Positions 5,977-46,950 of a DNA stretch of 64,000 bases are shown here, one piece after another. Origin of the DNA: a virus. Taxonomy: Duplodnaviria > Caudoviricetes. The notes beneath the pieces were generated by a model. The model saw only the letters and a program-made list of their open reading frames with translations, made no database searches and had not been told where the DNA came from. Numbering within the stretch: position 1 is the stretch's first letter; each line of letters starts with the position of its first letter. The position numbers and the translations under genes are program-made. The stretch spans positions 591-64,590 of the IMG/VR virus record IMGVR_UViG_2846797076_000002; one strand, written 5' to 3'.

Positions 5977-6049
5977 GTTCCTGGCGCGGGGGCGCGCGCC
6001 TTTCAAAGACAGGGAAAGATTTTTGGCTCTGAGACAGGAGAACGAGAAC

Positions 6050-6719: not shown

Positions 6720-6721
6720 GC

Positions 6722-7384: not shown

Positions 7385-7393
7385 GAGACGAAT

Positions 7394-7807: not shown

Positions 7808-7968
7808 GCGACCAGTCCGACAAGGCCGGCGATGGCATCCATGAGAACCACTGGTGCGAGCATCCCGGCTGCCGTAAATGGGGAGGCTTCGGGTATTCCC
7901 GATCGAAGGCCGAAAAGTCATCGTGGCATTGCTGGGAGCATTATCCGTTTAAGGAGCCGTCACGGTGA
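7804..7968 (+). CDS. 54-aa Cys/His protein (not in ORF track)
   Basis: MSDQ...HWCEHPGCRKWGGFG...WHCWEH; ATGA overlap, GGAGG SD. Confidence 0.6.
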   Translation: MSDQSDKAGDGIHENHWCEHPGCRKWGGFGYSRSKAEKSSWHCWEHYPFKEPSR

Positions 7969-8032
7969 TGGTGAACTCAAGACGTTCAGAGCGGAGGGTG
8001 CGCCGGCGGTTTTGCGGGCGGTGGAGACTGGG

Positions 8033-8377
8033 TCACCCACCACTGAGCCGGGATGTCGCGATCCCAAACGCACCAAATAAAGCACCTAATATCGCTCCGA
8101 TGATCATGAGGAGTGTCCCGACGAGAAACGTCGTCATCATCTGTCGCGCATTCATCTTGAATGCCATCCCGCAGATCGCGAAAATCGCGACATTCAAGAC
8201 TAGCGAAAAGACTATACCATTCCGTCCAAGCCCCATTATCGCGAGTGCGGTCAAAAGATATGACCCAACCATGGCGGTACTGCCGCGCCACCAATCAGAT
8301 CCAGATTTGTACGCGCCATACGCCCCGCCAACCGCAAAAGTTAGCACAATCAGAATGAATTGATCGGTTTCGCTCAT
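8033..8377 (-). CDS. Four-TM membrane protein (moron)
   Basis: Hydrophobic segments, GAGGGG SD. Confidence 0.65.
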   Translation of the reverse strand: MSETDQFILIVLTFAVGGAYGAYKSGSDWWRGSTAMVGSYLLTALAIMGLGRNGIVFSLVLNVAIFAICGMAFKMNARQMMTTFLVGTLLMIIGAILGALFGAFGIATSRLSGG

Positions 8378-8633
8378 TTTTGCGCCCCCTCGCCACGGCG
8401 CATGGAAACCAGATGGCGCTGCAGCTGTCGAGTCCTCAATTTTACGGTGAGGTTTGTATATCCCGAATAACGTTTGAGACGGTCGGGCGCTGCTTTTTTT
8501 GAATTACCATGCCCACTGGTTTGAGATGGGTGGTGCTATACGCATTGGCACTATTATCTTCCCTAATAAAAATTCTAGTTGAGTAGACTCGACTCCAATC
8601 TCTCTGCGTGTTTCTGTAATCACGGGGACGTTA

Positions 8634-9068
8634 TTGGGGGCTTTTTTGACAATTGTTTATTTGAGGGTGCTCGGCACCCTGCTCATTTCGTGCGCCTTGA
8701 GCGCATGCACCACTTCGCGTGAAGCATTTAATGCTAATCCGAAGTCGATCGATAAGCCAACGCTCTGTCGCACATACTTGCAGAGCCAAGATCCAGCATT
8801 CCAGCAGGACCTTGCCAAAGAACTCAGCCGGCGGGGCGTAGAGTTCTATCAATGTCCGGAGATGGTGAGGAACCAGGATGCTGCGGCTGCAGCTTTGGTT
8901 GCTGTCGCTCTGGTCGGGACCGCAGTCGCCGTGTGTGCGAACAACAATTGCGGGGGCGGCTACCCGACAAGAAACTACCCCGGCAATTGTTACTCCTACT
9001 ACGACCGAGCGGCCGATGGCAGCCTGTGTGGCCATCGAAGTGCGATGTCGCGGCCTGGCGGCTGGTAA
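8634..9068 (+). CDS. Cys-rich putative lipoprotein (moron)
   Basis: ALSAC lipobox; C-terminal C..YDRAADGSLCG.RSA. Confidence 0.6.
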   Translation: MGAFLTIVYLRVLGTLLISCALSACTTSREAFNANPKSIDKPTLCRTYLQSQDPAFQQDLAKELSRRGVEFYQCPEMVRNQDAAAAALVAVALVGTAVAVCANNNCGGGYPTRNYPGNCYSYYDRAADGSLCGHRSAMSRPGGW

Positions 9069-32608: not shown

Positions 32609-33064
32609 TCAGGCTAGGAGTTCGTCGTCCACGCTTGCGCCCGCCTCGATTTCCTTGGCCTGGTCGCGGCGCTTAGCAGCGTCCCTCGCCTCGCCTTGTA
32701 CGGCGCGTGCGTGCAGCGCCAGCGATCTGCGAAACGAAAGGATGGAAGAAGCGTGCATCTGGACCACGGACTTGCGCGGGTTGGCGACGGGCGTCCCTTT
32801 TTCGGTGACTGCGACGGAACCCTCCGTGCGAAGCAGGTCTTGCTCCCTCACAAGGTCGGCCATCGTGCGGGCCAGCATCGCGGCAATCTCAAGCTGGTGC
32901 GCCGACCAGTCGGCGCGCGCATATTCGGCAATGACGTTCTTGAAAAATGGAACGTCGCCGTCGTCGAGCGGTACGTTTTCGGGAAACTGGATCTCCTCAG
33001 AAGCCGCCGAGGCAATCCTTACGGCCTCATCGACGCTGTCGACGCGGCTTTTCTTCTCAGACAT
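32609..33064 (-). CDS. terS: Terminase small subunit (P27-like)
   Basis: GTPVANP, immediately upstream of terL. Confidence 0.75.
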   Translation of the reverse strand: MSEKKSRVDSVDEAVRIASAASEEIQFPENVPLDDGDVPFFKNVIAEYARADWSAHQLEIAAMLARTMADLVREQDLLRTEGSVAVTEKGTPVANPRKSVVQMHASSILSFRRSLALHARAVQGEARDAAKRRDQAKEIEAGASVDDELLA

Positions 33065-33190
33065 GCGGAATCCCTTCGCGCACGCGCGCTTGCGCACGCG
33101 CTAGGCAAAAATCTGTGTTTGCACTTGAATTGCGTTACCTCACCGGTCCTGCGGTGGTCGGTCGGCCACTTTCGAGGCACCCCCGGAGGG

Positions 33191-33514
33191 TCACGCAGCC
33201 GCCGTCATGTCGGGGAACTGCATGTTGATGGCATCAACGAGATGTTGGACACGCGCCAGCAAGTGACGATCACTCGCCAACCACCAGAAAGCATGGTCTA
33301 CGAACGTTCGCATGCGCAGTCCCTGAAGGCGGTCAGCATCGCCTTGGCGCTCAATGCGCAACACCTTGCAGCGCTTCATCATGTCCCTGCCTCGCAAGTC
33401 ATAGATCATGCGCTCGACGTACCGGACCATGGCTGCGTTATGAACCACGATGCATGCGCCATCGGTGGGAAGCGCCATTACCATGGCCTTGGTCTTGCCA
33501 GTGCCTCGCATCAT
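33191..33514 (-). CDS. Hypothetical protein
   Basis: RGTGKT P-loop-like start; between HNH and terS. Confidence 0.55.
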   Translation of the reverse strand: MMRGTGKTKAMVMALPTDGACIVVHNAAMVRYVERMIYDLRGRDMMKRCKVLRIERQGDADRLQGLRMRTFVDHAFWWLASDRHLLARVQHLVDAINMQFPDMTAAA

Positions 33515-33831
33515 CAGCCCACCTCTATTGGATATCCATCAACGCCTATGACCACAGCCTGCTGGCCTTGCTCGATGCGAGCCTTCAGCTTGTCGTGGCA
33601 TGGAGCGCAAAGTGATTGCAGATTGTCAGGATCGTAGAACAACGCCTCGTCGCCCTTATGTGGCTTGATGTGGTCGCACGTCGTTGCCTCGGTCACATCC
33701 TCGATAGCTAAGCAGAAGCGACATAATGGCTCGGCGGCAAGCTGAGCCTCGCGCAATCGTTGCCATCGCGCAGTCTTGTAGAGGCGACGGTAGAGCACGG
33801 CATCGGCTGAGCGGCCGTAGGGTTTGGGCAT
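33514..33831 (-). CDS. HNH endonuclease (packaging-associated)
   Basis: PLCRFC, CDHIKPHKGD, NLQSLCAPCH. Confidence 0.92.
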   Translation of the reverse strand: MPKPYGRSADAVLYRRLYKTARWQRLREAQLAAEPLCRFCLAIEDVTEATTCDHIKPHKGDEALFYDPDNLQSLCAPCHDKLKARIEQGQQAVVIGVDGYPIEVG

Positions 33832-34166
33832 TGGTGTTGCCTCAGAAACAAAAGCGCCGGGCTCAACCACGATGGGGAACCCGGCGCACGATCACCATGC
33901 AAGCGGAGGAGAACGCGCATGGGATTGGTTGCGCCACGATAGCGCGTGATAGATACCCGCCCACCACTGCGCGTCCACAGCGGATGCCTGTCAATTCAGG
34001 GCCAAGCTTGCAAGCAGAGGGTTGGGACGGCGATAGTTACCCAAAGCTCAGAGGCTGCAACGAGTGCAGCATGGCGATGGGTCCGACGCATAGCGCTCGG
34101 AATGTGGTGAGGTTCGCAACTACGTTGCGCCACCCCTTCACATTACTCTCTCCGAGATCGCGGAAA

Positions 34167-35084
34167 TTAAAGGTTTGCCGAAATTTTATTTATCGCAGCC
34201 ATAAGATTGTCATTGGCAGCGATCAGGGCTCGCTTACCGCCGCCATCAAACTTGGCATATTTCGGGGATTGCCCGACAGACACCCCAACTTCCTCGTACG
34301 TCCGTGCGACGACCGCTGTTTCCAACACCTTCCTATCTTTCGGCTTCAACTCGTCGACAGCATCAAACCATTCCTTGCGATCAGCCATCGCAGTGACAAT
34401 GTCCTGCCACATCATTGAGCCGCCGCCAGCGCATGTGGTCTTTTGCATCCCGAGGAAACTATCTGCGATCCTGGCGGAGCCACACGGCAGTCCATCAGGG
34501 CAGCGGGTGAATGTAACCTTGCTCATGTCGGTGTTGGCATAAGCCCTGGCCAGTTCCGATCGGGCTTCGTCTGCCGTCATCCTCACGCGCGGGCCTTTGT
34601 GCTTCTTGCCGGTAAGGTATCTGGCCCTCTTGGTATCGAGCATGTCGGCGAAGTACTGATTGCTTTCGGTGACCTCTTGCGGATTGTCGTCTCCGCCTAA
34701 CGCAACGTCCACCTTGTCGCGAGATCCGAGCATGGCACCAGCCGGCATCCTTGCCGCGTACTCCTCGACGCCACCGTCAATTGTCATGCGAAGGGCTTTC
34801 TCAGTCTGGGTGCCGTCGCTGAACCGCAACCGTCCGATCCGGACCACCTGTCCTGCTTCGTTGCGCTCAACCTCGCCTGTTGCCACGTTCTTCATGATCT
34901 CGGCTACGGATGGGGTAACCAGCCTTTTGCGATCGTGTTTCAGGTCTTCGATTTCATCGGAGTTGTTGTCGTTTGCTGGGACGACAGACCAATTGGTCTG
35001 TAGCGGCTCGGGCTGATGATCCGGTTCGGTGGCGAAGCGTCGTACCGCTGCCAACTGCTCTGCAAGTGATCCATGTCTCGCCAT
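34167..35084 (-). CDS. Hypothetical protein, probable late transcription regulator
   Basis: C-terminal HTH-like segment (ARTYEEVGVSVG); position before late operon; two ANDN. Confidence 0.6.
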   Translation of the reverse strand: MARHGSLAEQLAAVRRFATEPDHQPEPLQTNWSVVPANDNNSDEIEDLKHDRKRLVTPSVAEIMKNVATGEVERNEAGQVVRIGRLRFSDGTQTEKALRMTIDGGVEEYAARMPAGAMLGSRDKVDVALGGDDNPQEVTESNQYFADMLDTKRARYLTGKKHKGPRVRMTADEARSELARAYANTDMSKVTFTRCPDGLPCGSARIADSFLGMQKTTCAGGGSMMWQDIVTAMADRKEWFDAVDELKPKDRKVLETAVVARTYEEVGVSVGQSPKYAKFDGGGKRALIAANDNLMAAINKISANL

Positions 35085-35087
35085 ATC

Positions 35088-35120
35088 GTCTCCCCTGTGG
35101 TGCTAGCGCTCGGTAGGCGC
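35088..35120 (-). repeat. Leader copy
   Basis: GCGC-CUACCGA-GCGC..CACCACAGGGGAGAC. Confidence 0.7.
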
Positions 35121-35122
35121 CG

Positions 35123-35593
35123 TTACTTTGTGTTGTCGTTATCGGCCAGCCAGCCTTTGACCAGTGCCACCGCCTTGCTGGCCGCTTCTGCCGTGGATGT
35201 GAACCGCACCACCTCGACTGGATGCCCTAGCCGAGCCAGCGAGGCGTGGCGCTCGACCTGCGCCGGAGATAGCCGGCCTTTACCAACCTTGTTCTCGATC
35301 ATCCGCAGCTTGCCGCCCTTGAGGTAAATCCGTAGATCGGCTTCGCCTGGCGTCAACCCGGTGGCTATAGCATCAGCTTGGGCACGTGGTCCGCGCTTGG
35401 CTGAATTCATGTCGCCAGCAAGCAGGAACTGGCGACCGTACTCCGGCAGCGACCGCAGGGTTCGCACTTGAGCCGCCTGCCCTTCGCTTTCCTTGATGGG
35501 TGCGTCAGCGACGCACACCTTGCCCTTGGCGCTCGTGCGGATGACGACGCGCTTGCCGTTGATGCGGGTGGTCTGGCTGGTGGCTTTGGGCAT
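35123..35593 (-). CDS. VRR-NUC domain nuclease
   Basis: GLTPGEADL, IENK..KGRLSPAQ. Confidence 0.8.
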   Translation of the reverse strand: MPKATSQTTRINGKRVVIRTSAKGKVCVADAPIKESEGQAAQVRTLRSLPEYGRQFLLAGDMNSAKRGPRAQADAIATGLTPGEADLRIYLKGGKLRMIENKVGKGRLSPAQVERHASLARLGHPVEVVRFTSTAEAASKAVALVKGWLADNDNTK

Positions 35594-35597
35594 GGCG

Positions 35598-35631
35598 GTC
35601 TCCTCGTGGTGCGGTGTCGTGGTGGCGACAC
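35598..35631 (-). repeat. Leader copy
   Basis: GUGUCG-CCACCA-CGACAC..CACCACGAGGAGAC. Confidence 0.8.
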
Positions 35632-35724
35632 ACATACTTTCCGAGAACGCGCCGAAAACGGGTAGTCGATTTGCGAAATATTTTTGGGCGTAAAAAAAGC
35701 CCCGCTTTCCGCGGGGCTGTGTAG

Positions 35725-36021
35725 CTAGCCAGTTGCGTGACGGCTGTGCTCGCGCATTGGGGCCGGACTTGCCAATACCATCGGCATTCCCGCCTCAAGG
35801 CAGGCCGCAATGAAAGCTTCACGGGCGACCTCGGATGGCACGGCCCATTCCAGAGCTGCCCTGCACCGGTTTACTGCCCTCTTGTAGCGATCTCCGCGTC
35901 GGAGCGGCCACTCTTCTTCCAAAAAATCCAGCGCATCATATACGCTGAGGAATGTTCTCTCGAGTCCGCATTGTAACCGGACGCGAACTGGTGCTCGAAA
36001 CAAAACGTCTTGGCTGTTCAT
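35725..36021 (-). CDS. DUF982 family protein (moron)
   Basis: SVYDALDFLEEEWP, AREAFIAACLEAG. Confidence 0.85.
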   Translation of the reverse strand: MNSQDVLFRAPVRVRLQCGLERTFLSVYDALDFLEEEWPLRRGDRYKRAVNRCRAALEWAVPSEVAREAFIAACLEAGMPMVLASPAPMREHSRHATG

Positions 36022-36122
36022 TTCTTACCTCCAATCCAAACAGAACAAGAAGCACGAAAGATATTGGTGGGAGCAAAGGCGGGTTCAAGACCGGAGCTGC
36101 AAAAAAGACCGGCTAAGCTCCG

Positions 36123-36290
36123 TCATCGGCGATCGTCCTCGTCCCGGTTCGGGCACCGCTTCATGAACTTGTCAATTTTTGACCGGTCGCCTCGAAAGTG
36201 TTCCAGGACCTCCACTGCCACATGCAGGCTTACGGCATATTTCTGCTGTAGCTGCTCGACGGTGTACGGCTGCAGTTCGTTCTCTGACAT
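36123..36290 (-). CDS. Small stress-type hypothetical protein
   Basis: GAGGAG SD, preceded by EcfG-type promoter. Confidence 0.55.
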   Translation of the reverse strand: MSENELQPYTVEQLQQKYAVSLHVAVEVLEHFRGDRSKIDKFMKRCPNRDEDDRR

Positions 36291-36312
36291 CTGCGTTCTC
36301 CTCATCTGCGAA

Positions 36313-36337
36313 AATGCGGATGGGTGATGTCGGTTCC
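36313..36337 (-). promoter_or_regulatory. EcfG/RpoE2-type promoter
   Basis: GGAAC-N16-CATT. Confidence 0.6.
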
Positions 36338-36367
36338 GGGTTGTAACGAATATGCCCTTCTGCCCGG

Positions 36368-36530
36368 TGCACGTTGCCCAGATAAATCATCTTGAGAACC
36401 GTGCGCGCGGCACACCGCCCTGCACGGTTGCACGTGTAGGGGTATATATAAATATATACCCTACTAAACGTGCACTAACCGGGCAGCGCCGTGCAGGTGT
36501 CTCCGCCCGGATGTGCACAGTTAGTGCACG
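36368..36530. repeat. TGCA(C) repeat cluster around an AT-rich inverted repeat; candidate replication origin
   Basis: GTAGGGGTATATAT-AA-ATATATACCCTAC flanked by about 7 (G)TGCA(C) copies. Confidence 0.5.
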
Positions 36531-36650
36531 GATAGAATTTTGGTATCCGGGCGGTATTAGAAGTTGAATTACAGATGACAATTTGGTTGTATTGGCGAGT
36601 TCGAAGTTTAGCTTTGGATATCGGTTGTACGCTTTTAATGGGATGAATAA

Positions 36651-37070
36651 ATGCGGGTTTGTGGGGTCGATATAAAATCAAAAGAAGCTATCGTCGTAAT
36701 CTGCGAGCCATCTTCGGGTGCTGCTAACGTGGTTGAGGCAAGTACAAAGCGAATAAAGTTGGATGACGGTGCTGATGGGCCTGCATTGAAGTCCATGAAG
36801 ATGGCTATAGACAGCTATTTACACGAGCAGAAGATTGACGTGGTGGTAATTAAGGAGCGAGCAACCGGGGCGATGGGTGCGTCGGGCGTCACATTTAAAA
36901 TTGAAGCCCTTTTTCAGATGTCTCACAACGATGTCGTGCTGGTCCACGGAAACACGCTCAGGAAGTTTGCAAAGAAGAACGTGGCGGGCGCCCCCGCCGG
37001 ATTAAACGCTTATCAGAAGGACGCGTTTACGTCTGCCGCTTGGCTCCTTAACGAAAAAGGACTCTTGTGA
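36651..37070 (+). CDS. DUF3010-like protein (RNase H-like fold predicted)
   Basis: MRVCGVDIKSKEAI, VVIKER..GASGVTFKIEALFQ. Confidence 0.75.
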   Translation: MRVCGVDIKSKEAIVVICEPSSGAANVVEASTKRIKLDDGADGPALKSMKMAIDSYLHEQKIDVVVIKERATGAMGASGVTFKIEALFQMSHNDVVLVHGNTLRKFAKKNVAGAPAGLNAYQKDAFTSAAWLLNEKGLL

Positions 37071-38143
37071 TTATCAATAGTCTGTCGGTCCCAGAGGACG
37101 TCAAGGTCGCACTTCGAGAGCTTGAGAAGCAAATTGAGTTTCATAAAGCCTCTGACAAGGGCCAGAATGGCCATGTTTTGTTTGGAACGAACCGAGTGCT
37201 CGGCCGACCAGACGTCGTTAAGCTGTACTACTGGGAGAGCGGCGACCACGCTGAACCAGAGTTGCTAGCAAAACTCGAACACCCTAACATTCTCAAAGTC
37301 TACCACGCCGCTTCGATTGATTTAGAATGGGCGTTCTTTACGACGAAGTTCTGTGACGGTGGTGATCTAGACACGGTTCTAGAAAAAGGCCCGCTTGGCT
37401 TGCGGGAGGCGGTTGACGCCGTCATGATGGTCGCAGCCGGTGTAAGTTATTTGCATGGGAATGGCTTCCTGCACCGAGATCTCAAGCTCGAAAATGTATA
37501 TCGAGACAACAATCAAATCGTAATAGGGGATTTTGGATCCGTCTCTCCATGCGACGCGCAGGGGCATTGCAAAACGTTAACCAGACACTCTCTGCTGTAC
37601 AGGCCACCCGAGGCTACGGTCACCAACGATTACTTTAAAGAAAGTGACGTTTACCAGTTGGGACTGATGCTCTTTCAGTTGTTAGGCGGATATCTGCCAT
37701 ATGATGAGCGCGACTGGCTGAGCAGCAAGCAGAAAACGGAATATGATGCCCTCAAGGGCACAATCGACAAAGGGGATTACGCCACCAAAATTATAGAAGA
37801 GAAGATCAACAAGGGGCGCCTTTTAGAAATGGACACTCTTCCTGCTTACGTGCCCAAACCCTTAGTCTCATTCATTAGAACGGCAACCCGCGTTGACAGA
37901 AACGGAAGGCATAAATCTGTCTCGGATTTCATAGCAGCACTAAATAATATGCAGCGCAAGATCCCCGATTGGAGACCTGAAGGCGATCATATCGTACTTC
38001 ACAGACCCAAAAAACGCATACGCGTAACATCTGGTGGCAGTAATTTCTCAATAGAAAAAGACGTCGGTAACGGCTGGAAGAGACAGCATAGCCTGAAGCC
38101 AACTACGATGGGCGCCGCCGTGGTCATGGCGGAAATGGTTTAA
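37067..38143 (+). CDS. Hanks-type Ser/Thr protein kinase
   Basis: VVKLY, HPNILKV, LHRDLKLEN, IGDFG, YRPPE, SDVYQLG. Confidence 0.92.
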   Translation: MIINSLSVPEDVKVALRELEKQIEFHKASDKGQNGHVLFGTNRVLGRPDVVKLYYWESGDHAEPELLAKLEHPNILKVYHAASIDLEWAFFTTKFCDGGDLDTVLEKGPLGLREAVDAVMMVAAGVSYLHGNGFLHRDLKLENVYRDNNQIVIGDFGSVSPCDAQGHCKTLTRHSLLYRPPEATVTNDYFKESDVYQLGLMLFQLLGGYLPYDERDWLSSKQKTEYDALKGTIDKGDYATKIIEEKINKGRLLEMDTLPAYVPKPLVSFIRTATRVDRNGRHKSVSDFIAALNNMQRKIPDWRPEGDHIVLHRPKKRIRVTSGGSNFSIEKDVGNGWKRQHSLKPTTMGAAVVMAEMV

Positions 38144-38228
38144 CAAAAAAGGCCGGTGCATCTCTGCCCCAGCCTTCCTGTAGCTATCGCGATCTGCCAG
38201 TACATCCGTGGTCAGCGCGCAAAGCTAT

Positions 38229-39305
38229 CTACTTCCGATACGCTAGACCGCCCCAGACGCGGCCCTCGTCCCGATGACGACCACCGTGGACTGCGCCGAT
38301 ATAGGCCGCAGCGGCGGATACAAGAGCCGAGGCAGCCAAGAGGAATGCGGTCAAGATTCCGGCAACCCGCGCCTTTTCAGCAGCATCAACGGCTTTTGCC
38401 TTAGCATCCTCCAGAGCTTTCTCAGTCTCAGCCCTGAGATCGTCGATTTTCTTTTGCGCTTCGTCGACCTTCTGCTGCGCCTGCGTTCGAACAGCCTGCA
38501 CCCTGTCTACCGTCTGGTTGACGCGTGTCTGCGCGTCAGGTTGGCTAATGCCGGTACGAGCTGCGACCTGATTAGTAAGCCAGGTACGATCAGCGTCGGA
38601 AATCTCTCCAGTCGAAAGAAGGTTGCTCAGAATCCCACCGGCTTGTCGCTGAAAATCTGCGCCGTTTTGATCGCCGTTAACCGCAGGCGTATCGGTTCGC
38701 AACAGAGTGTCGGTGAAATAGTCGATCGGATTTGCCTTCAACCCTTGCGGAAGAGCTTCCTCAATGCTGGGAGCCGCTGCCTGGCCGGCGCCTTGAGCGA
38801 CGCCACCAATAGCGTTACCGGCACCAGACACCACCCCACCGGCCAATTGGCCAACACCCTGGGCAGCTCCTCCGACCGCAGAGCCAGTCGCCTCGACGGC
38901 AGACTGCGCTACGCTTCCAACGGCCCTCGCGCCGCCGGACACCACGCTGAGAGCAAGAAATGCTGAAATGACGGTTCCAAGACCCCAAACAACGAGACCG
39001 TTGATGCCGTCGCGTGTCGTGAGCTCGTTACGGTCCGCCGATCCAGCTGGGCGCCGCATACGACCCGTAATGTAGCCGCCCAACATATAAGAGCCAACCA
39101 TCGAGATAACGACGAACAATCCTGTGATGATTAGCCAGATCACGCTTATATCACCGCCATCATCGGCCGATATGGAACTCAGCCCCAGACCTCCGGCAAA
39201 CGCGGTGAGGATGGCAACTGCGCCAGATGCTATGACGGTGCCCGCGAAAATGGCTGGCCAATCGACATAGCTGCGATTTGTTTCAGTACCGATAGGATCG
39301 ACCAT
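38229..39305 (-). CDS. Membrane protein with Ala/Gly/Gln-rich helical region (stress-type moron)
   Basis: SYVDWPAIFAG, GGYITGRMR, DGINGLVVWG. Confidence 0.75.
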   Translation of the reverse strand: MVDPIGTETNRSYVDWPAIFAGTVIASGAVAILTAFAGGLGLSSISADDGGDISVIWLIITGLFVVISMVGSYMLGGYITGRMRRPAGSADRNELTTRDGINGLVVWGLGTVISAFLALSVVSGGARAVGSVAQSAVEATGSAVGGAAQGVGQLAGGVVSGAGNAIGGVAQGAGQAAAPSIEEALPQGLKANPIDYFTDTLLRTDTPAVNGDQNGADFQRQAGGILSNLLSTGEISDADRTWLTNQVAARTGISQPDAQTRVNQTVDRVQAVRTQAQQKVDEAQKKIDDLRAETEKALEDAKAKAVDAAEKARVAGILTAFLLAASALVSAAAAYIGAVHGGRHRDEGRVWGGLAYRK

Positions 39306-39572
39306 TAGCGTAACCCCAAAAATGAGAGAATGAACAGGACGATTACGACTAGCCCAACGAGATAAATGATAGAGTTCATGGTGCGTCTCCTCCGGAGGGA
39401 CAAAGTTCCGCTTGGCGGGTGATTTTATTTTGCGAGAAACCAGAACTGGTTGCTCTAAGGCCAAACTCCGCGAGACTGGAAAAGTTTCACGAACAGAGAT
39501 TCCCCGCGCCAACGGCTTCGATTGCGCAAAAAAAGACCGCCAGCCATTACTGACCGGCGGCCTTTCATTGCA

Positions 39573-39776
39573 TTACCAACCCTGACGACCATACCAGTCG
39601 TCGACGTCTTTTTTGGCCTGGTCCTTCGCATAGCCATAGCGCTCCTGGATTTTGCCTTCCAGCTGCTCGCGCTTGCCATTGATGACGTCAAGGTCGTCGT
39701 CAGTGAGTTTGCCCCACTGCTCCTTGACCTTGCCCTTCATCTGCTTCCAGTTACCTTCTACGCGGTTCCAATCCAT
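39573..39776 (-). CDS. csbD: CsbD/YjbJ general stress protein
   Basis: MDWNRVEGNWKQMKGKVKEQWGKLTDDDL..GKIQERYG. Confidence 0.95.
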   Translation of the reverse strand: MDWNRVEGNWKQMKGKVKEQWGKLTDDDLDVINGKREQLEGKIQERYGYAKDQAKKDVDDWYGRQGW

Positions 39777-39808
39777 TGATATATCTCCTCTTTGTTGTCT
39801 GAGGAGAA

Positions 39809-39833
39809 AACGCGGTGGCAGCTGCTTGGTTCC
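39809..39833 (-). promoter_or_regulatory. EcfG/RpoE2-type promoter
   Basis: GGAAC-N16-CGTT, consensus match. Confidence 0.75.
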
Positions 39834-42077
39834 CTAAGCCGCCCTAACAAACACCGCCAACTCCCTCCGAACTGGATCCCGTTCCTCCCGCTCGATGAGC
39901 GCACCTTCACGCATCAGCGCATTCACAAGGCTGGACGCCCGCTTGCGCTGCACGTTGTCGTCCAGATCCAGCCCCACAGCGTACGCTACAGCGGTTCCGA
40001 CCCAGTTCTTGGCCTTGGGTGACTTCTTGTAGTCGGACGCGCTCACAGCCGCCAGGATCGACGCACGCTGGTCCTCCGTGAGGTCTCCCGCTACTTCCTC
40101 CGCACTCGGCCAATGCCATTCCGTCACGACCGGGGCAAAGTCCTGCGGCTGAGCAAGGCCGGTCCCGTTGCCAAGCGGTGTCGAGACGAGATGGCGCCAT
40201 TCTGCCTTGTGCGAAAGCGGCGTCAGGTTCGACTTGCCGTAGGTGGTGTAGAAGTAGCCGAACCGGTCAGCCTTATCGATGCCAGCCTCTCCTGCCTGCT
40301 CTTCCGACATGCGGTTGAGAACGCGCACGGAACGCGCCGCACCAATCAGTGATACGGCACCTCGGGCATCCTCAACGGTTGCCTCCCGGTCTGCCACCTT
40401 GCGCAAATGGTGCACGATGTCGATCGAACAATTGGTGTAGTCGGCGATCTGCGCCCAGAGCTTCGCCACCTTGTCGATCGCACCGTTGTCGTTCTCGTTC
40501 ACGCCGTGCGTGGACACGAATGGATCCACGATCATAACATCGATGCCATATCGCTCGATCTGCTCGACCACCGCCTCAACAATCGGCTGCTGGATGCGAA
40601 CGCCAGCCTTCTTGTCTTCGATGGCGACGACCAGCTCCTGTTCGCGGCCGCTATCCAGGAAGAGATGTCCCTCGAGGTCGGCAGGCTTCAGCTTGTAGTG
40701 GATGCAAGCCGCCATGATGCGCCGCTCCATTTCGTCGCGCGGGTCTTCGGCATTAAATATCCACGTCCGCAAGCGCTTGGGCGGCTTAATGCCGAGCAGC
40801 GCCCTGCCCGACACCATAGCAAGGCCCTCAGCGATGCTGGCCGACGTCTTACCGAGGCCGCCCGGCGATACCGTGACGGACACATACTTGCGGATGAAGT
40901 GCGAGCCGTAGGCAAACTCACGGCGCGGCAATGTCTTGGGATCGATCCACTTGAATGCCGTGGCGACGATCGGTGATTGCTGCTCTGTGGGCTGAGGCGT
41001 GTTGTCGTTTGCGGGAAGATCGCCGGGGTGGCCAGCAAACTCCTGCTCACGGTCCTCTTGCAGGTCACCGACTGGCGACAGCCTCTCTGTCACAACATCC
41101 ACTTCCAACGCAGCCGCCTGCTCGCGCAGCCTGCCCTTCTCAAGCCCGCGCTGGATCATGCGTGTGATGTCCACGAGGCGGGTGTTATCGTGCGCAGGGA
41201 AGTCAGACTCCGGAATGTGGCGTGGGTTCTGGATGCCAGCCTTCAGGCCGTTCTCGATCGTCTTGCAGCAGCGCGACCAGTCCCTGCCCCATCCGCGCGC
41301 AACGTCCTGCAGCAGTGCTCGTGCCTCGGCTTCGCTAAGTGCACCGGCGCCGACGATAGTGCCGATTGAGAACGCGGCGTCGTTCAGCGCGTTGTTGCGG
41401 GTGCCCATCGGCGCGCCAGCAAGGTCTGCCAGTTCACGGTCGACGGCAGCATCGACGTAGGCGTTGTTGGTCGCAGCCGACAGGCTGTACTGAGTGTGAG
41501 CGGGAGCAGACTTCGGCAGCAGCAGATCTAGCAGCCAAGCTGGCGCGTCAGCGATCTCACGCGTGTCCGTTTCCCACTTGTAGGAGCGGCCGTTAGCCAT
41601 AGTGCTGCCGGCGGCCAGCACGTAGCCGCCCTCGGACCGGATATCCACGCCAGCGCCAAGAGCGCCGCGGTTGCGAGTTCCCACGACGTACTTGAAGTAG
41701 ATGTGGAGACCGCCATTCGGGCTCGTCACGCGTGCCGTGTCTGGCAGTGGGCCGTGCTCGGCCTCCATCTCGGCCAGCCAGTCGAAGCCGTTGGCACCGC
41801 CAGGCTTGTTGTCGATGTCGAGCGCGAAGAAGCCTGTCTTCTCGCCCGTCGGCAAGCCAACGGCAGCATCCGGCCAGTCCGACCACCATCTCTCGATGAT
41901 GCGCGGAAAGCGCGTTGCGCCCTTGAAGCCATTGGGGGTCAAAGGCGTCTTTTCGCCGAGCGTGACGATCTCGCCGGTGGCTTGGTCGACGAGTTCCTCA
42001 GCGTGCGAGCGGCATGGAAATACGGGCCAGCCTTGACCGACGTAGTGTTGCGCTAGTTCAAGCGGCGTTTGCATCAT
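39834..42077 (-). CDS. Bifunctional primase-polymerase fused to AAA_25 (RecA-like) helicase
   Basis: GWPVFPC, ALDID, GGLHIYF, DIRSEGGYV, SPGGLGKT, IVDPF, VHHLRK. Confidence 0.92.
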   Translation of the reverse strand: MMQTPLELAQHYVGQGWPVFPCRSHAEELVDQATGEIVTLGEKTPLTPNGFKGATRFPRIIERWWSDWPDAAVGLPTGEKTGFFALDIDNKPGGANGFDWLAEMEAEHGPLPDTARVTSPNGGLHIYFKYVVGTRNRGALGAGVDIRSEGGYVLAAGSTMANGRSYKWETDTREIADAPAWLLDLLLPKSAPAHTQYSLSAATNNAYVDAAVDRELADLAGAPMGTRNNALNDAAFSIGTIVGAGALSEAEARALLQDVARGWGRDWSRCCKTIENGLKAGIQNPRHIPESDFPAHDNTRLVDITRMIQRGLEKGRLREQAAALEVDVVTERLSPVGDLQEDREQEFAGHPGDLPANDNTPQPTEQQSPIVATAFKWIDPKTLPRREFAYGSHFIRKYVSVTVSPGGLGKTSASIAEGLAMVSGRALLGIKPPKRLRTWIFNAEDPRDEMERRIMAACIHYKLKPADLEGHLFLDSGREQELVVAIEDKKAGVRIQQPIVEAVVEQIERYGIDVMIVDPFVSTHGVNENDNGAIDKVAKLWAQIADYTNCSIDIVHHLRKVADREATVEDARGAVSLIGAARSVRVLNRMSEEQAGEAGIDKADRFGYFYTTYGKSNLTPLSHKAEWRHLVSTPLGNGTGLAQPQDFAPVVTEWHWPSAEEVAGDLTEDQRASILAAVSASDYKKSPKAKNWVGTAVAYAVGLDLDDNVQRKRASSLVNALMREGALIEREERDPVRRELAVFVRAA

Positions 42078-42316
42078 GCTGCGTCCTTTTCAATGGCCGT
42101 GAAATACCATCCCCAAAGCCAGTCATCAAATCTGGCCCATGTCTTTCCAAGCATCCGGCGCTGCGTTCGACGCCGTATGAGCCACAGCAGAAATCGCGGC
42201 CACGCTGGCATTGGTGGTTCTGTCTTGCTGGCCCACCATAGCTTGCCGACTGGTTCTTTTGGCCTGGTTGGGTAGCTGTTTGCGGCAATAATTGCGGCCC
42301 AAAGTGCTGGGTTCAT
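42074..42316 (-). CDS. Trp-rich hypothetical protein
   Basis: Coupled overlaps on both sides. Confidence 0.45.
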   Translation of the reverse strand: MNPALWAAIIAANSYPTRPKEPVGKLWWASKTEPPMPAWPRFLLWLIRRRTQRRMLGKTWARFDDWLWGWYFTAIEKDAA

Positions 42317-43944
42317 TAGGCTGCATCCTTAAAATCAATAACGGCCATAGATGGCATGAACTGCGCGATACGCTGACCGAGCCAGACGAATTTCGGCACG
42401 GCCCAGCTGTTACCGAGAGACTTGTAGCGAGGGCCGTCTGGAGAGTTCTGTTTGCCGCGCCACGGGATGTCGGTGTAGTCGTCAGGAAAGCCCTGAAGGC
42501 GTTCGCATTCAAGGGGAGTTAGGCGTCGGACGGCACTCGTAAGCACCGCCGGCATCACGCCTGCATTGGCATGGCTGTTGGTGTGGCCACCGGTGCGAAG
42601 TGTTGGGGCCAAGTCAAAGGATGCGTCGGCGCCGTAGTCCTTTGACGAGAAGCACACAATCGGCGTCCCCCGCCCCGTTCCATCCTCGCTCGCGTCCGCA
42701 CCTTCAGCTTTGAGCGTGTGGGCGACTTCGCCAGTGACGCAGACTGCCTGAACTTCAGCGCGAGACTCAAGTGTATAGGCAACACCCTCCTGAACACCGA
42801 CGCCGTCTGGCCCGCTATTCGGATTTGTGCGTAGCGCGCCTGCTTGAATTGCGTGGGTAACGAAATGCCCCGCGGCAGCGCCCTCTGGTCGTCCACCCAT
42901 CCCGCCGCTGAAACTGTCTTTGCAAAGAGTTCCGACGACAGCAACCATCGTTGTAGTTTCAAAATCCTGCGAGGACCCTTCGCGTGTTGCGACGCAACGC
43001 GCTATTTCAGGGATATATGTCTCTTTCGTTGCATCATGGCTGCTGTTGCCCTTGGCCAGCAGCGGATTGGCCGCCTCCACCAACCCACCATCTAGATCGA
43101 AGTCTGTTCCGAGCCCGCCGCCGCCTTTAGTGCGTGCGCTAATTGTGGGGGCAACGTCTTTCCCCTTTTCTCGGCTCGGCGGAGTATCCCTGAACATGCT
43201 TTCGGGCTCAAAAAGAACCGCTGCGGGATCTGCCCCGTTTCCAAAATCTTCGACAACGAGCACACGACGGCGTCGTTGGGCCACTCCGAAAAATTGCCCA
43301 TCTTTGACAGCCCACGCGGCCCGTCCTTTAGGTCCAGTGACCATACCGTGACGCGCCCACTTTCCTCTTCTCGGTGGTTCGATGTGGGAATCTGCACCCA
43401 CAAGTCCGGCGAGGAAGCAGCCGAAGGCGTTGTCTTTGGTGCTGAGAACGCCGACAACGTTTTCCCAGACGACGTTCCGAAGTCCATTGTTAGCTGCAAG
43501 CTCATGCGCAAGCCTCACGAATTCGAGTGACAAGTTTCCTCGCGCATCGGCGAGAGATTGACGAAGGCCAGCCACACTGAACGCCTGGCAAGGCGTGCCG
43601 CCTGCGAGAATGTCGACGCGACCAAGCGTCTTGGTGTCGATCTTGGTGAAGTCGCCCCAGTTGGTCAGAACCGACTCGACCGGCAACCGTGACACTGCCT
43701 TGAGGGCAGTTTTTCGCGAACGCTGATCCTTCAGCTTGATGCCCGGTTCTCCGGGGTTCGGCATGTGCTTAGGGCGCCCTGCACCATAGTGGTGCGCTAG
43801 CACGAAAGCAGGGAAGGGTTCGATTTCGGCCACGCCGATGCATTGCCACCCGAGTGGATGCCAAGCGACCGAGGCCGCTTCAATGCCAGAGCATACCGAC
43901 AAGAAGCGTAGGCCGGTGTGGTTGTCATTTGCCGCTATGGGCAT
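42316..43944 (-). CDS. C5 cytosine DNA methyltransferase
   Basis: SVCSGIEAA, GGTPCQAFS, WENV, QRRRR, RRLTPLECERLQGFP, LGNS. Confidence 0.93.
   Translation of the reverse strand: MPIAANDNHTGLRFLSVCSGIEAASVAWHPLGWQCIGVAEIEPFPAFVLAHHYGAGRPKHMPNPGEPGIKLKDQRSRKTALKAVSRLPVESVLTNWGDFTKIDTKTLGRVDILAGGTPCQAFSVAGLRQSLADARGNLSLEFVRLAHELAANNGLRNVVWENVVGVLSTKDNAFGCFLAGLVGADSHIEPPRRGKWARHGMVTGPKGRAAWAVKDGQFFGVAQRRRRVLVVEDFGNGADPAAVLFEPESMFRDTPPSREKGKDVAPTISARTKGGGGLGTDFDLDGGLVEAANPLLAKGNSSHDATKETYIPEIARCVATREGSSQDFETTTMVAVVGTLCKDSFSGGMGGRPEGAAAGHFVTHAIQAGALRTNPNSGPDGVGVQEGVAYTLESRAEVQAVCVTGEVAHTLKAEGADASEDGTGRGTPIVCFSSKDYGADASFDLAPTLRTGGHTNSHANAGVMPAVLTSAVRRLTPLECERLQGFPDDYTDIPWRGKQNSPDGPRYKSLGNSWAVPKFVWLGQRIAQFMPSMAVIDFKDAA
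43092..43511 (-). CDS. Nested alternative-frame ORF inside the C5 MTase (beta-polypeptide-like)
   Basis: CSLSKILETGQIPQRFFLSPKACSGILRRAEKRGKTLPPQL reads as a protein-like block in a second frame. Confidence 0.6.
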   Translation of the reverse strand: MRMSLQLTMDFGTSSGKTLSAFSAPKTTPSAASSPDLWVQIPTSNHREEESGRVTVWSLDLKDGPRGLSKMGNFSEWPNDAVVCSLSKILETGQIPQRFFLSPKACSGILRRAEKRGKTLPPQLAHALKAAAGSEQTSI

Positions 43945-43952
43945 GAGTTTTC

Positions 43953-43997
43953 TCTCCTCTGTGGTGGTGAGCCAGCGCCGATTGGTGGTCGACGCTG
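43953..43997 (-). repeat. Leader copy
   Basis: CAGCGUCGA-CCACCAA-UCGGCGCUG..CACCACCACAGAGGAGA. Confidence 0.8.
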
Positions 43998-44005
43998 TAT
44001 GCTGT

Positions 44006-44890
44006 TTAAATATCGGCGAAGAACTCCTTCACCACACTGACTTTCTCGACCATCTCGGTTTTCACGCCTAGGCCGATATCTTTCAAAAGGGCGGCAAATG
44101 CTTCGCCGTCGATCAGGTCAATTGCAGGCACGCCGTCACGAGTTGCCTCTTTCTTCGCCTCACCGGTAAAGCGGCCCGTTGTAACGAACAGAGCCTTGTC
44201 GGTGCGGCCAGACATGGCGCCTCGGAAGTCTCGCACGTCACTGGGACCAACCGTTAGCTTGTAGCGCTTGCACTGCACCAACACCTTGAATGAAAGAACA
44301 CTGTTGACTTTAACCTGACCAATCACGTCGATCCCGCCGTCGCCGCTGCGACCGACTACCTCAACATGAGAAAATCCCAGTTGGAGCAATAGAAGGCGAG
44401 TTAGCCGCTCAAATGCATCTGCTGGCATTGCTTTGAGGGTGGCGATGAGATCGGTTTGCCATGTCGTCTCCTCCTCCAACTCTTCTACCAAATCGTTTGC
44501 TTCCGCTTCGATCTGAGCTTCATCTGCTGCGGCCCGGCTAGCCTTCGCCTTAGCGCTGTTGATGTATCTACGGTCGATGAGAACTTGTTCAACTTCTTCC
44601 CTGGTTGCTGCTCGACCGAGCATGTTCAAAACCCAAACTCCGCGCTTGGGGTTATCCATCATGCCTCCCGCCTTCAGCCAAGACTGAACCCAGCCGACTC
44701 GATAAGCCAGTTCCGTGCCTGGACCATCCTTATGAAGCACCGATGTAACTTCGTCTGATAGACCCATAAGCTCAGCAACTTTTTCAAGCAGCTGCTCTTT
44801 GTCGGCAGACCCTCCAAGCTCCTTAAAAGCCTGCACGACAGGCCAAAAAAGCTGCGAGTGACTCGGTACTTTCGTAAATTTCTTCAGCAT
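44006..44890 (-). CDS. mrr: Mrr-family (type IV) restriction endonuclease
   Basis: Mrr N-terminal wHTH (RVGWVQSWLK..G..NPKRGVW), AFERL, SGDGGIDV, VQCKRY, FVTTGRFT, IDLIDGE. Confidence 0.9.
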   Translation of the reverse strand: MLKKFTKVPSHSQLFWPVVQAFKELGGSADKEQLLEKVAELMGLSDEVTSVLHKDGPGTELAYRVGWVQSWLKAGGMMDNPKRGVWVLNMLGRAATREEVEQVLIDRRYINSAKAKASRAAADEAQIEAEANDLVEELEEETTWQTDLIATLKAMPADAFERLTRLLLLQLGFSHVEVVGRSGDGGIDVIGQVKVNSVLSFKVLVQCKRYKLTVGPSDVRDFRGAMSGRTDKALFVTTGRFTGEAKKEATRDGVPAIDLIDGEAFAALLKDIGLGVKTEMVEKVSVVKEFFADI

Positions 44891-44953
44891 CCCCATACCC
44901 TTACTAGTTGATGGGAGGGATGCTCGCATTCTGGAGATGCGTTTTCAATGGGG

Positions 44954-45343
44954 TTAGAATGGCGCGTCTTTCAGTGCCTCGCGAACTCCGCGGGCGCAAC
45001 CCTCCCAAGCTGCTCGTACCAGCAGCTTCTGCATTAGCTCGTCGTAATGGGACAATTCGGTGATGCCACCGTTTGCTGCGATCCATTCACCGACAGCTTC
45101 GACACCGGATTCAAGCGCCTTAACCTCGTACAATGAAACTCTGTCCAACTTCGTCAAATCTCCGATTGAAATCATACAGGCCTTGCACATAAATCCAGGG
45201 TCAGGTGGTCTGTGCCGGTCGCTGGGGTCTGACCTTCCTACCCCTATCGCAAGCATCCCGCAGCACTTGCACACGGTGGGTGACCCGTTCTCGTCTTGCG
45301 TCGGACTAAATGGAATGATCGGCTTGCCGGGAAGCTTGGTCAT
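44954..45343 (-). CDS. Zn-finger hypothetical protein
   Basis: CKCC and CKAC; ATGA overlap. Confidence 0.6.
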   Translation of the reverse strand: MTKLPGKPIIPFSPTQDENGSPTVCKCCGMLAIGVGRSDPSDRHRPPDPGFMCKACMISIGDLTKLDRVSLYEVKALESGVEAVGEWIAANGGITELSHYDELMQKLLVRAAWEGCARGVREALKDAPF

Positions 45344-46950
45344 GCTGCCACCCCAAACAAGTCGGCAGGACGGTTATCGTTTGCCGGTACCGTACCAGTC
45401 TCGACGACTTCTTTGCTTGTCGCGCCAATCGCCCACGCAATCCGGGCCGCAGCGATAGGCATGTATTCGTCCTCGCGCTCGCAACCGACGAACTGGAAAC
45501 CTTCGAGAAGGGCCGCCTTGCCTGTGCTGCCCGAGCCCATGAACGGATCCAGGATAATACCACCCGGTGGCGTGATGAGGCGGCAAAGCCACTGCATGAG
45601 GGTTGTTGGCTTAACGGTTGGGTGAACATTGCGGCGGTTGGCCTTCAAGGCGCCGTATGCGTCAGATATTTCGCTGCTGGTTCCACCGCCGCCAGATACG
45701 GTAACCTCCGGGAACGCCTCCAGCCCAGCATCACGGTCAGCACGGCTGGCTTTGGCGCAGTAGAAGAAGCGAGCGGCTGAAGTTTCCGCCTCGACGCGCG
45801 GATGACTATCAGGCCGCGCACCAAAGTCACCATAGATGCCCTTGCTTAGGCGCTCACCGTGCTTCGGCCCAACATATCCCTGCTGGCCTTTTGCATTAGG
45901 AAACGCCGCCAGCACCTCTTCGCTGCCGTCGTGGAGGATGTTGGCTGGCCAGCGGCCAAGGTCTTGTTCATTGCCACCCGGGGCACGAGAGCCGTCAATG
46001 TTGATGGCTCCAGTGCCGTGTTCAAGAACGTTTTCGGCAACTGTCCCTATCAGGGGCTTTCGCGCAAGGCAGATGGGCTCCCACGCCGGCTTAAGTGCGG
46101 TTCCCCACCCTTGCCACGCAGACGCCTCCTCATCCAAGCTGCGGATGGTCCTGTCGCCTTCAAATCGAAGGTCACCAAAGCCAGCGGGCGTCGAAGCTAC
46201 TTCGCCGATAATCTCTGCTTCAGCCCAACGCTCGCCGTGCGTGCCCTTGCGACCATTAAGGCGTGAAACCTCGATCGAGATAAACTCAAATCCATCTCTG
46301 CCCGACAAAGATAGAGCGTCAACAAGTCCATCCCACTGCTCATTGGTTGGCAGAGCAGGCTGGGAGTCGGTGTCACGCGCTGCCCAATGGTCGATGAGAC
46401 GCGGATTGCAGTCGCCAAAATGCTGAGTGAGGTCTTTCGACTTCAGACCTGCCTCATCCATTGCAGCACGAATGAACCGGCAAACGACTCGCACCGGCTC
46501 AACGTCTTCGACGCGACGCTTGGCAATCCCCTTGCTGACATCATGGCTCTTCGGAAACCCTGAACCGTAAACCCAACCAAGCTGATCGCGGATCTCAAAT
46601 CCAGCATCTTCGATCGCAACAGCCATGCGGTGATAGGTTCGCGTTCCAGAGAACGCGACAACGTGGCCGCCTGGCTTCAGGACGCGCAGAACTTCGGCCC
46701 AGAACTCTTCGGAGAATGCTACTTCGCCGGTGTCCCAGCTTTTCCCCATAAAACCAGCGGCGCCGCGACCATAAACGTCTTTGGCCGGGGCAGATCCCGG
46801 CTTTCCGAAACGCTTCTGAATCGAGACCAGCGCATAAGGCGGGTCGGTCACGACGCTGTCGATCGAGTTGTCGGCAAGGCCGCGCAACACGTCACGGCAA
46901 TCGTTTTGATGCAGCACGACTCTTCCGTCGTGCATCGATGTGATGCTCAC
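45340..46950 (-). CDS. N6-adenine/N4-cytosine DNA methyltransferase with internal HTH-like insert
   Basis: VTDPPY, HPTVKP, LDPFMGSGSTG; ends ANDNRPADLFGVAA. Confidence 0.92.
   Translation of the reverse strand: MSITSMHDGRVVLHQNDCRDVLRGLADNSIDSVVTDPPYALVSIQKRFGKPGSAPAKDVYGRGAAGFMGKSWDTGEVAFSEEFWAEVLRVLKPGGHVVAFSGTRTYHRMAVAIEDAGFEIRDQLGWVYGSGFPKSHDVSKGIAKRRVEDVEPVRVVCRFIRAAMDEAGLKSKDLTQHFGDCNPRLIDHWAARDTDSQPALPTNEQWDGLVDALSLSGRDGFEFISIEVSRLNGRKGTHGERWAEAEIIGEVASTPAGFGDLRFEGDRTIRSLDEEASAWQGWGTALKPAWEPICLARKPLIGTVAENVLEHGTGAINIDGSRAPGGNEQDLGRWPANILHDGSEEVLAAFPNAKGQQGYVGPKHGERLSKGIYGDFGARPDSHPRVEAETSAARFFYCAKASRADRDAGLEAFPEVTVSGGGGTSSEISDAYGALKANRRNVHPTVKPTTLMQWLCRLITPPGGIILDPFMGSGSTGKAALLEGFQFVGCEREDEYMPIAAARIAWAIGATSKEVVETGTVPANDNRPADLFGVAA

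Follow-up and report, generated by a model that had tools for sequence, protein, structure and literature searches.

A two-gene cassette in a siphovirus-type provirus

We analyzed a stretch of 64,000 nucleotides (nt), hereafter the window, which corresponds to positions 591-64,590 of the virus (Caudoviricetes) record IMGVR_UViG_2846797076_000002 of IMG/VR. The record is a siphovirus-type provirus. Most of its genes are on the minus strand, in the order tape measure, capsid, portal, TerL, DUF982 and small open reading frames (ORFs), membrane protein, CsbD, PrimPol-AAA, C5 methylase, Mrr, and N6 methylase. A cassette of two plus-strand ORFs breaks this run, with the terminase/structural module on one side and the PrimPol/methylase module on the other; all the neighboring genes are on the minus strand (Table 1). 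ORF1 encodes a DUF3010 protein and ORF2 a Ser/Thr kinase. An earlier reading of the sequence alone (hereafter the original prediction) had proposed here a defense or toxin-antitoxin module made of two translationally coupled genes. Our analysis shows that the cassette is a real, conserved, and mobile two-gene module, and a good candidate for a variant of kinase-based defense.

The positions, strand, and coupling of the two ORFs were confirmed: they share the letters GTGA at 37067-70 (...cttGTGAtt...), where the start codon of the kinase overlaps the stop codon of the upstream gene. The cassette is indeed an AT-richer insert, with a GC content of 0.496, compared to 0.589 for the 5 kb on either side.

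Table 1. Features of the cassette and of its borders (positions in the window).
Feature	Position	Strand	Remarks
ORF1, DUF3010 partner	36651-37070	+	ATG start, 139 amino acids (aa); PF11215, RuvC-like RNase H fold (model)
ORF2, Hanks-type Ser/Thr kinase	37067-38143	+	GTG start, 358 aa; AAGGA 8 nt upstream
Kinase motif K52	37220-37222	+	
Kinase motif HRD	37472-37480	+	
Kinase motif DFG	37529-37537	+	
Kinase C-terminal domain, residues 296-358	37952-38140	+	Five beta strands and a helix (model); conserved DW, R, K, W
Variable cargo slot	36597-38141		Exact stretch swapped for other DNA in related elements
Conserved left flank rich in inverted repeats	36360-36555		Outside the cassette
Match to alphaproteobacterial small RNA (sRNA) ar35 (RF02346)	38142-38239	-	45.3 bits (gathering threshold 45), E-value 3.1e-6

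A kinase family with its own C-terminal domain

ORF2 matches the Pkinase profile (PF00069) with an E-value of 9.6e-30 and 104.3 bits, for a threshold of 31.7, and its structural model has a kinase fold (predicted local distance difference test, pLDDT, of 88.8). The catalytic HRDxKxxN and DFG motifs are present, as originally predicted, in the form HRDLKLEN at residues 136-143 and DFG at residues 155-157. Across 23 members of the family, K52, E63, H136-R137-D138, K140, N143, D155-F156-G157, P181-E182, and D194 are invariant. In these alignments, the kinase is catalytically intact and under purifying selection. A Foldseek search of the whole model against the PDB and BFVD retrieved generic kinases only.

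The C-terminal extension of about 60 aa, which had also been pointed out, is real: residues 296-358 (63 aa) are conserved within the family and fold into five strands and a helix in the model. When 1.84 billion representatives were searched with a profile of this domain, this kinase family alone was retrieved, bar a few longer matches made of multiple stretches, of which the only one inspected (P0142) is an Asp-box-like repeat protein. An Atlas search with the same residues gave no usable match. The kinase family as a whole is discrete, since its 92 clusters have E-values ranging from 2e-217 to 8e-36 and are separated from the generic kinases (8.5e-19) by 17 orders of magnitude.

The partner is a DUF3010 protein with a RuvC-like fold

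ORF1 is a single-domain protein that matches the DUF3010 profile (PF11215) with an E-value of 7.8e-29 and 101.2 bits, for a cut-off of 25, its residues 1-129 aligning to positions 1-134 of the 137 of the profile. The match was also found in a separate genome search (E-value of 4.2e-30). No other Pfam family, including RuvC and YqgF, was matched at E-value ≤ 1, and a profile built from 44 DUF3010 sequences had no match at E-value ≤ 10 among the sequences of the PDB. The AlphaFold2 model of the protein is confident (pLDDT of 92.7) and bears out the RuvC/YqgF-like fold of the original prediction: Foldseek gave template modeling (TM) scores of 0.66-0.72 to RuvC chains, and a VIA search gave RuvC Z-scores of 15.1 (root-mean-square deviation, rmsd, of 2.9 over 136 of the 139 residues) and 14.3. 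The next neighbors in this search were TEFM (11.0), a poxvirus resolvase, Tex (10.5), and YqgF (9.5). The RuvC-fold or YqgF-like domains of TEFM, Tex, and Spt6, all VIA neighbors, are not known to be catalytic.

We counted the conservation of residues over 24 kinase-linked and 24 solo DUF3010 sequences. The residues conserved across the family are C4, G5, R70, G73, K83, E85, and Q122; among these, E85 and G73 are present in 48/48 sequences, R70 and K83 in 47/48, and Q122 in 45/48. The catalytic carboxylates of the RuvC of E. coli are D7, E66, D138, and D141, and are located on strand 1, at the end of strand 4, and on the last helix. When equivalence is judged by secondary-structure position, rather than by superposition of residues, these carboxylates are not conserved in the family of ORF1. 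Position 7 is D in 13, E in 5, Q in 4, H in one, and F in one of the 24 kinase-linked members, and position 69, which closes strand 4 and is the E of IKER in ORF1, is E in just seven. Hence, the motifs GVDIKS (residues 5-10) and IKER (67-70), which had been compared to the active sites of such nucleases, are both present, but their acidic residues are not conserved among the kinase-linked members. Position 7 of the solo proteins is Glu in 23/24 sequences, and the ancestral DUF3010 family may have had a different, possibly catalytic, role. The kinase-linked clade has its own markers, T/S81, P115, and D124: D124 is found in 20/24 and T/S81 in 23/24 of its members, against 1/24 and 5/24 of the solo proteins.

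Because the RuvC-type carboxylates are not conserved, the partner resembles a non-canonical sensor or regulatory subunit more than a gated nuclease, although the invariant E85 makes some catalytic role possible. Majorek et al. 2014 (PMC3985635) place DUF3010 among the Holliday junction resolvase-like (HJR-like) families of the RNase H fold and note conserved active-site residues. In the literature searched on DUF3010, no functional description beyond this assignment of fold was found.

The kinase is always preceded by DUF3010

The original prediction hinged on the conservation of the pair in other genomes, and this was clearly found. We compared the window to other loci (numbered L002 onwards) and found a DUF3010 gene, or its remnant, directly upstream of the kinase in the 18 out of 18 loci that have this kinase family and upstream DNA. 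The pair is intact in 13 of them (window, L002-L008, L051, L054, L058, L059, and L139) and cut by the end of the contig in two (L043 and L053). Two other copies, both in metagenome-assembled genomes, are frameshifted (L009 and L015), probably by assembly indels, and the last one is degenerate with an in-frame stop (L138). The loci that were reached via the kinase (L053, L054, L058, L059, L139, and L138) all have DUF3010 upstream. According to the ORF coordinates, the two genes overlap by 4 nt at the closest and are about 9 nt apart at the widest. These results reveal a fixed operon, where a RuvC-fold protein of a DUF3010 clade is followed by a dedicated kinase with its own C-terminal beta domain.

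A metagenome scan with the kinase alignment, whose motifs are generic, gave 80 loci, of which three belong to the family (L058-L060). Among these, L060 is cut at the end of a contig and was left out of the count given above. Five pairs of clusters have longest contigs of equal length, which is consistent with further co-located pairs.

The search from the DUF3010 side gave 49 genome loci. Ten of these are alphaproteobacterial and have the kinase directly downstream. The other 39, mostly from gamma- and epsilonproteobacteria, lack a kinase of this family; neighbors were sampled at 14 of them. In the phylogenetic tree of DUF3010, the kinase-linked proteins form one clade (support of 99/96), and the solo gammaproteobacterial proteins form a separate one (99/98). 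The alphaproteobacterial DUF3010 of L012 has no kinase, and since its long branch falls inside the kinase-linked clade, it has probably lost it.

The solo loci of gamma- and epsilonproteobacteria (L010-L050) have no conserved neighbor. The gene after DUF3010 in L011 encodes a DEAD-box helicase, and a Photobacterium gene list likewise has a DEAD-box helicase after DUF3010 (PMC10441182). The degenerate locus L138 lies in the megaplasmid pHG1 of Cupriavidus necator H16, where a diverged copy of the pair spans positions 5584-7098 of the locus; its DUF3010 gene has an in-frame TAA, and its kinase keeps the motifs and is annotated.

The cassette occupies a slot where cargo is swapped

Contigs from X5 and X6, the sequencing runs of two related genomes, match the window at 35080-36596 and 38142-40064, and have 1266 other nt in place of the 1545 bases in between (joint at 36596/38142). 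Four related proviruses (L152, L153, L154, and L162), found via the neighboring membrane protein, also keep both flanks. The conservation reaches approximately 36553-36596 on the left and 38138-38145 on the right, with other DNA between the two. This DNA consists of 648 nt coding for a secreted-looking protein of 195 aa in L152, of 604 nt coding for a membrane protein of 216 aa in L153, of 1270 nt coding for a DUF3644 protein of 414 aa in L154, and of 1864 nt coding for a small protein of 153 aa and a kinase of 358 aa in L162. The protein of L154 corresponds to the candidate defense family PDC-S19 of PADLOC (E-value of 3.4e-52). Since related elements hold other cargo between the same flanks, the cassette is one allele of a cargo-swapping hotspot, whose other alleles include defense candidates. 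This demonstrates directly the moron hotspot that had been proposed for the locus. The cargo of X5 and X6 was not recovered, as two exact-pattern scans of viral contigs had no match and a DNA search of 400 genomes of the Rhizobiaceae family gave only weak matches of DUF982 type; the cargo of L154, which is close to it in size (1270 and 1266 nt), may be its equivalent.

The pair has a GC content that is 4.6 to 17.5 points lower than that of its flanks in 17 of the 18 loci, and the kinase family was found in 2 of 401 sampled alphaproteobacterial species. Three viral contigs carry the pair (window, L051, and L054), including a P2-like provirus where it lies between the scaffold and terminase genes (L051). 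Two further copies are in plasmids or chromids, namely a Rhizobium chromid and a Cupriavidus megaplasmid. The cassette thus moves among prophages, plasmids, and chromosomal islands.

Both borders of the slot have features of their own. The left flank (Table 1) is packed with inverted repeats: one is a perfect 10+10 palindrome (GGGTATATAT/ATATATACCC), and several others have arms of 9-31 nt. This flank could act as an operator or terminator, or be a border prone to recombination. At the other side, one end of the match to ar35 coincides with the border, and the match is just downstream of the gene for the membrane protein (38229-39512, minus strand).

A sister pair is embedded in restriction-modification operons

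The cargo of L162 resembles the cassette of the window. Its small protein has no match in Pfam. When compared by language-model features, it is associated with clusters of DUF3010 (Atlas score of 0.93, 204 shared features), and a profile made from 51 clusters of such small proteins aligns to the DUF3010 profile (hhalign 73.7%, E-value of 2.9e-5, 87 columns). The aligned N-terminal motif is LGFRSDP in the sister proteins and CGVDIKS in the window. The L162 kinase has the same length as that of the window, is 24% identical to it in the core, and aligns to the profile of the window family through part of the C-terminal domain. These comparisons suggest, with moderate confidence, that the sister pair is distantly homologous to that of the window.

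A kinase follows the sister small protein in 5 out of 5 records, three of which are near-identical proviruses. In the plasmid pMpar-1 of Methylocystis parvus, the pair is part of a type I restriction-modification (R-M) operon with the order hsdS-hsdM-(GIY-YIG)-hsdS-[small protein-kinase]-hsdR-SprT, with 4-nt overlaps at junctions. The plasmid pHR1a of Novosphingobium resinovorum has the same order minus the GIY-YIG gene. The placement between hsdS and hsdR is thus observed in loci of the sister clade (L166 and L167), whereas the window has no hsd gene within 5 kb. We found no member of the sister clade in the 401 sampled alphaproteobacterial genomes or in the deposited phages.

Defense genes in the neighborhood of the pair

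We scanned 137 neighbor ORFs, in a range of about 5 kb, for PADLOC matches with E-value ≤ 1e-10. The immediate surroundings of the pair in Rhizobium sp. RU33A (L002) include a type I R-M system upstream, a retron of type II-A directly downstream (6800-8688; NDT with E-value of 1.5e-69 and RT with 4.9e-119), and a GajB-like helicase beyond it. This locus is a compact defense island. PDC-S11 is next door to the pair in L043, a Gao Iet-type pair (IetA/IetS) is directly downstream in L138, and an Mrr-type enzyme and a methylase are 4-6 kb away in the window. The orphan DUF3010 of L012 is beside a type II R-M system. The 13 control loci with solo DUF3010 had only generic matches to helicases, exonucleases, or regulators. 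The trend favors defense, even if the numbers are small, and the context of the pair is defense-like, in agreement with the original prediction. A match of a neighbor in L053 to SspA/DndA (E-value of 1.9e-16) was not counted as defense, as it is a generic class-V aminotransferase.

Comparison with known systems

Few phage defense systems are known to rely on kinases; these are Stk2, PD-T4-6, KKP, BREX type 2, and MADS. The function of the cassette would be most like that of the single-gene kinase defenses (Stk2 and PD-T4-6) and of KKP, and by the tests available it is probably not a member of any of them. In agreement with the initial impression, the partner matches no named system, as PADLOC has no family for it. 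Searches of the literature on DUF3010, kinase defense, PD-T4-6, Stk2, MADS, and kinases in type I R-M found no description of the pair.

PD-T4-6, which reportedly emerged from a selection that Vassallo et al. carried out in E. coli, is also a Hanks-type kinase with intact catalytic motifs carried by mobile DNA. It differs in being one gene by definition, whereas here a DUF3010-type partner is always upstream and the kinase has a C-terminal domain restricted to its family. The PD-T4-6 models match the kinase of the window over the catalytic core only (E-value of 1e-25, residues 63-217 on positions 59-217 of the 292 of the profile). The match to the L162 kinase has an E-value of 6.4e-33, and because it covers nearly the whole profile, the kinase of the sister clade may well be labelled PD-T4-6 by PADLOC.

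KKP was described in Pf prophages as two kinases (PfkA and PfkB) and a phosphatase (PfpC) that form a toxin-antitoxin system and provide defense triggered by a phage protein (PMC11341870). It shares with the cassette the nature of a Ser/Thr kinase module borne by prophages, KKP having a neutralizing partner. The composition of the cassette differs, its partner being a RuvC-fold protein where KKP has a phosphatase, and there is one kinase instead of two. Pfam profiles identified no phosphatase among the 22 ORFs of the window around the cassette.

PrrC causes abortive infection and is encoded within a type I R-M operon (EcoprrI). The sister pair is found between hsdS and hsdR, which is the position of PrrC in its own operon. 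Yet, its effector would be a kinase pair and not an anticodon nuclease, and the cassette of the window has no adjacent type I R-M system. The methylation-associated defense system (MADS) has a kinase, MAD6, associated with R-M-like genes. The mad6 model is the best PADLOC match of the kinases of both the window and L162 (E-values of 1.4e-30 and 3.5e-37), but these profiles have 612-659 positions, for a kinase of 358 aa, and the partner matches no other mad model. The kinase also scores below the cut-off of the Stk1/PknB PASTA family (NF033483; 77.2 vs. 450 bits), and its 358 aa include neither PASTA domains nor the long body of PglW. Finally, the partner shares the fold of RuvC and RuvX (YqgF), and resembles also that of TEFM, Tex, and Spt6, but has no match to RuvC or YqgF at the sequence level and conserves the set of seven residues listed above instead of the carboxylates.

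A candidate anti-phage module

The conserved pairing, the cargo-swapping slot, and the R-M-embedded sister pair make a role in defense or genetic conflict likely. Our preferred reading, which we hold with modest confidence, is that the cassette is a mobile two-gene conflict module, most likely an anti-phage system of the abortive-infection type carried as a moron. How the work is divided within the pair is far less certain. Kinases of the Stk2 type and of KKP halt growth or phage development by phosphorylation. By analogy, the kinase would be the effector, and upon infection it would phosphorylate host and/or phage proteins, thereby halting growth or the development of the phage. The small protein would be a non-canonical RuvC-fold subunit, rather than a classical resolvase, that restrains the kinase and/or senses the trigger, and translational coupling would set the ratio between the two. 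The trigger could be a structure of phage nucleic acids or, where the pair is embedded in an R-M operon, the condition of the restriction complex. The small protein may in turn be regulated through Thr81, a clade-specific residue that adjoins the invariant K83 and E85.

Several observations weigh against this defense reading. No recognized defense gene was found within about 5 kb in 14 of the 18 loci, several of which are among housekeeping genes such as those coding for MlaA, GyrA, and Mfd, and the contrast with the 13 control loci is based on small numbers. Searches of 50,697 deposited phage genomes found no relative of either protein. The matches of the kinase to PADLOC models (mad6 and PD-T4-6) do not exceed the generic Pkinase match in strength, and its scores are far from the cut-offs of MAD6 (NCBIfam NF047741, PADLOC PDLC04138; 67.3 vs. 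460 bits) and of the PglW of BREX/Pgl (NF033442; 36.4 vs. 990 bits). The remote homology of the sister small protein is moderate only: against the 73.7% obtained with profiles, hhalign gave 3.7% for the single sequence of L162. Finally, in pHG1 the kinase motifs are kept beside a broken partner, which argues against an indispensable inhibitor, unless the kinase is silent.

A broader possibility, which we put forward tentatively, is that DUF3010-like RuvC-fold proteins and kinases of about 358 aa make up an ancient family of immune sensors with at least two diverged clades, in which a remodeled resolvase fold detects a phage cue and activates a kinase that aborts the infection. The cue would be branched or replicating DNA, or an inactivated type I restriction complex, in which case the R-M-embedded forms would be guards of restriction that parallel PrrC.

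The cassette might instead be a plain toxin-antitoxin (TA) module that stabilizes mobile elements and has no part in phage defense, with the kinase as toxin and the small protein as antitoxin. The genes overlap and are in the antitoxin-first order, their distribution on plasmids and prophages is patchy, and TA genes adjoin some of the loci (PIN in L009 and L043, a protein of an antidote family in L054). KKP also provides a precedent for Ser/Thr kinases of prophages as toxins (PMC11341870). We nevertheless regard this as unlikely, because an apparently intact kinase persists in pHG1 beside the degenerate, stop-containing partner, while the R-M embedding of the sister pair and the slot common with defense candidates point beyond addiction. 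TA and defense roles are not mutually exclusive.

The original prediction had suggested a phosphorylation-gated nuclease, where DUF3010 would be an effector of RuvC/YqgF type that cuts DNA or RNA once phosphorylated. The closeness of the fold to RuvC and the invariance of E85 speak for it, D124 and T/S81 could mark an active site adapted to control by the kinase, and the HJR-like families among which PMC3985635 places DUF3010 have conserved active-site residues. However, the acidic residues of the first strand and of the end of strand 4 vary among the kinase-linked members, the sister clade has yet other residues at the aligned positions, the sequence searches against Pfam and the PDB gave no nuclease match, and the next structural neighbors include proteins (TEFM, Tex, and Spt6) whose domains of this kind are not known to be catalytic. 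A canonical nuclease of this kind is thus disfavored, and we rate the gated-nuclease explanation as rather improbable.

The kinase could also serve the element itself, by controlling lysogeny or induction or by disarming host defenses, as in the role of KKP in lysogeny or like the kinase of T7. The pair is borne by prophages in three loci, its orientation opposite to the phage operons makes expression in the lysogen likely, and there are precedents (PMC11341870 and PMC13645617). We give little credence to this explanation: 15 of the 18 loci are outside recognizable phage DNA, some copies are among core genes or within plasmid R-M operons, and no relative was found in the deposited phage genomes. 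An ordinary cellular signaling kinase with its substrate or adaptor, outside any genetic conflict, would fit the several loci flanked by housekeeping genes alone and the solo gammaproteobacterial DUF3010 genes that look like ordinary chromosomal genes, but is very hard to reconcile with a pair that is so rare among sampled species, consistently foreign in GC content, and exchanged for other cargo in a provirus slot.

The module is a compact and conserved two-gene candidate for kinase-based defense, having a foldable partner with the fold of nucleic-acid enzymes, two clades, a swap slot in prophages, and forms embedded in R-M operons. If the defense reading is true, this would be the first role for DUF3010, a family without a known function since at least 2014, a tractable system to study the control of a kinase by a RuvC fold, and an example, based on a kinase, of second-line systems that are linked to restriction operons. 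Should the reading be wrong, the cassette would remain a mobile kinase module with clear limits and with cellular targets of interest.

Other features of the window

The RNA sequencing data are uninformative on the expression of the cassette: two runs with the same species label had no reads on it, the only reads being partial ones at 39107-39907, and these strains probably lack the prophage. In a collection of phages, the sole near match for the region 33000-42000 of the window was MT839724.1, an unannotated 4-kb fecal record named 'Bacteriophage sp.', which is 87.9% identical to 33002-34077 in three pieces and covers about 6% of the 9-kb query.

An element of about 83 nt at 33846-33928 is present in the related proviruses L153, L154, and L162 with 84-94% identity. 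In X5 and X6 it lies on a separate contig of 701 nt, where the adjoining letters resemble part of a tRNA. The element itself had no match with ARAGORN and Rfam, and may be the remnant of an attachment site or of an sRNA.

The slot is flanked by genes of host type on the minus strand, which encode a DUF982 protein (35725-36021), the membrane protein mentioned above, and CsbD (39573-39776). The membrane protein, of 427 aa and rich in Gly and Ala, is kept at 66-96% identity in 11 other proviruses of IMG/VR. Further along, three consecutive genes at 42316-46950 (minus strand) encode a C5 methylase, a type IV restriction enzyme of Mrr type (PADLOC mREase_IV/PDC-S02), and an N6/N4 methylase, and form a second defense or anti-restriction cluster of the same prophage.

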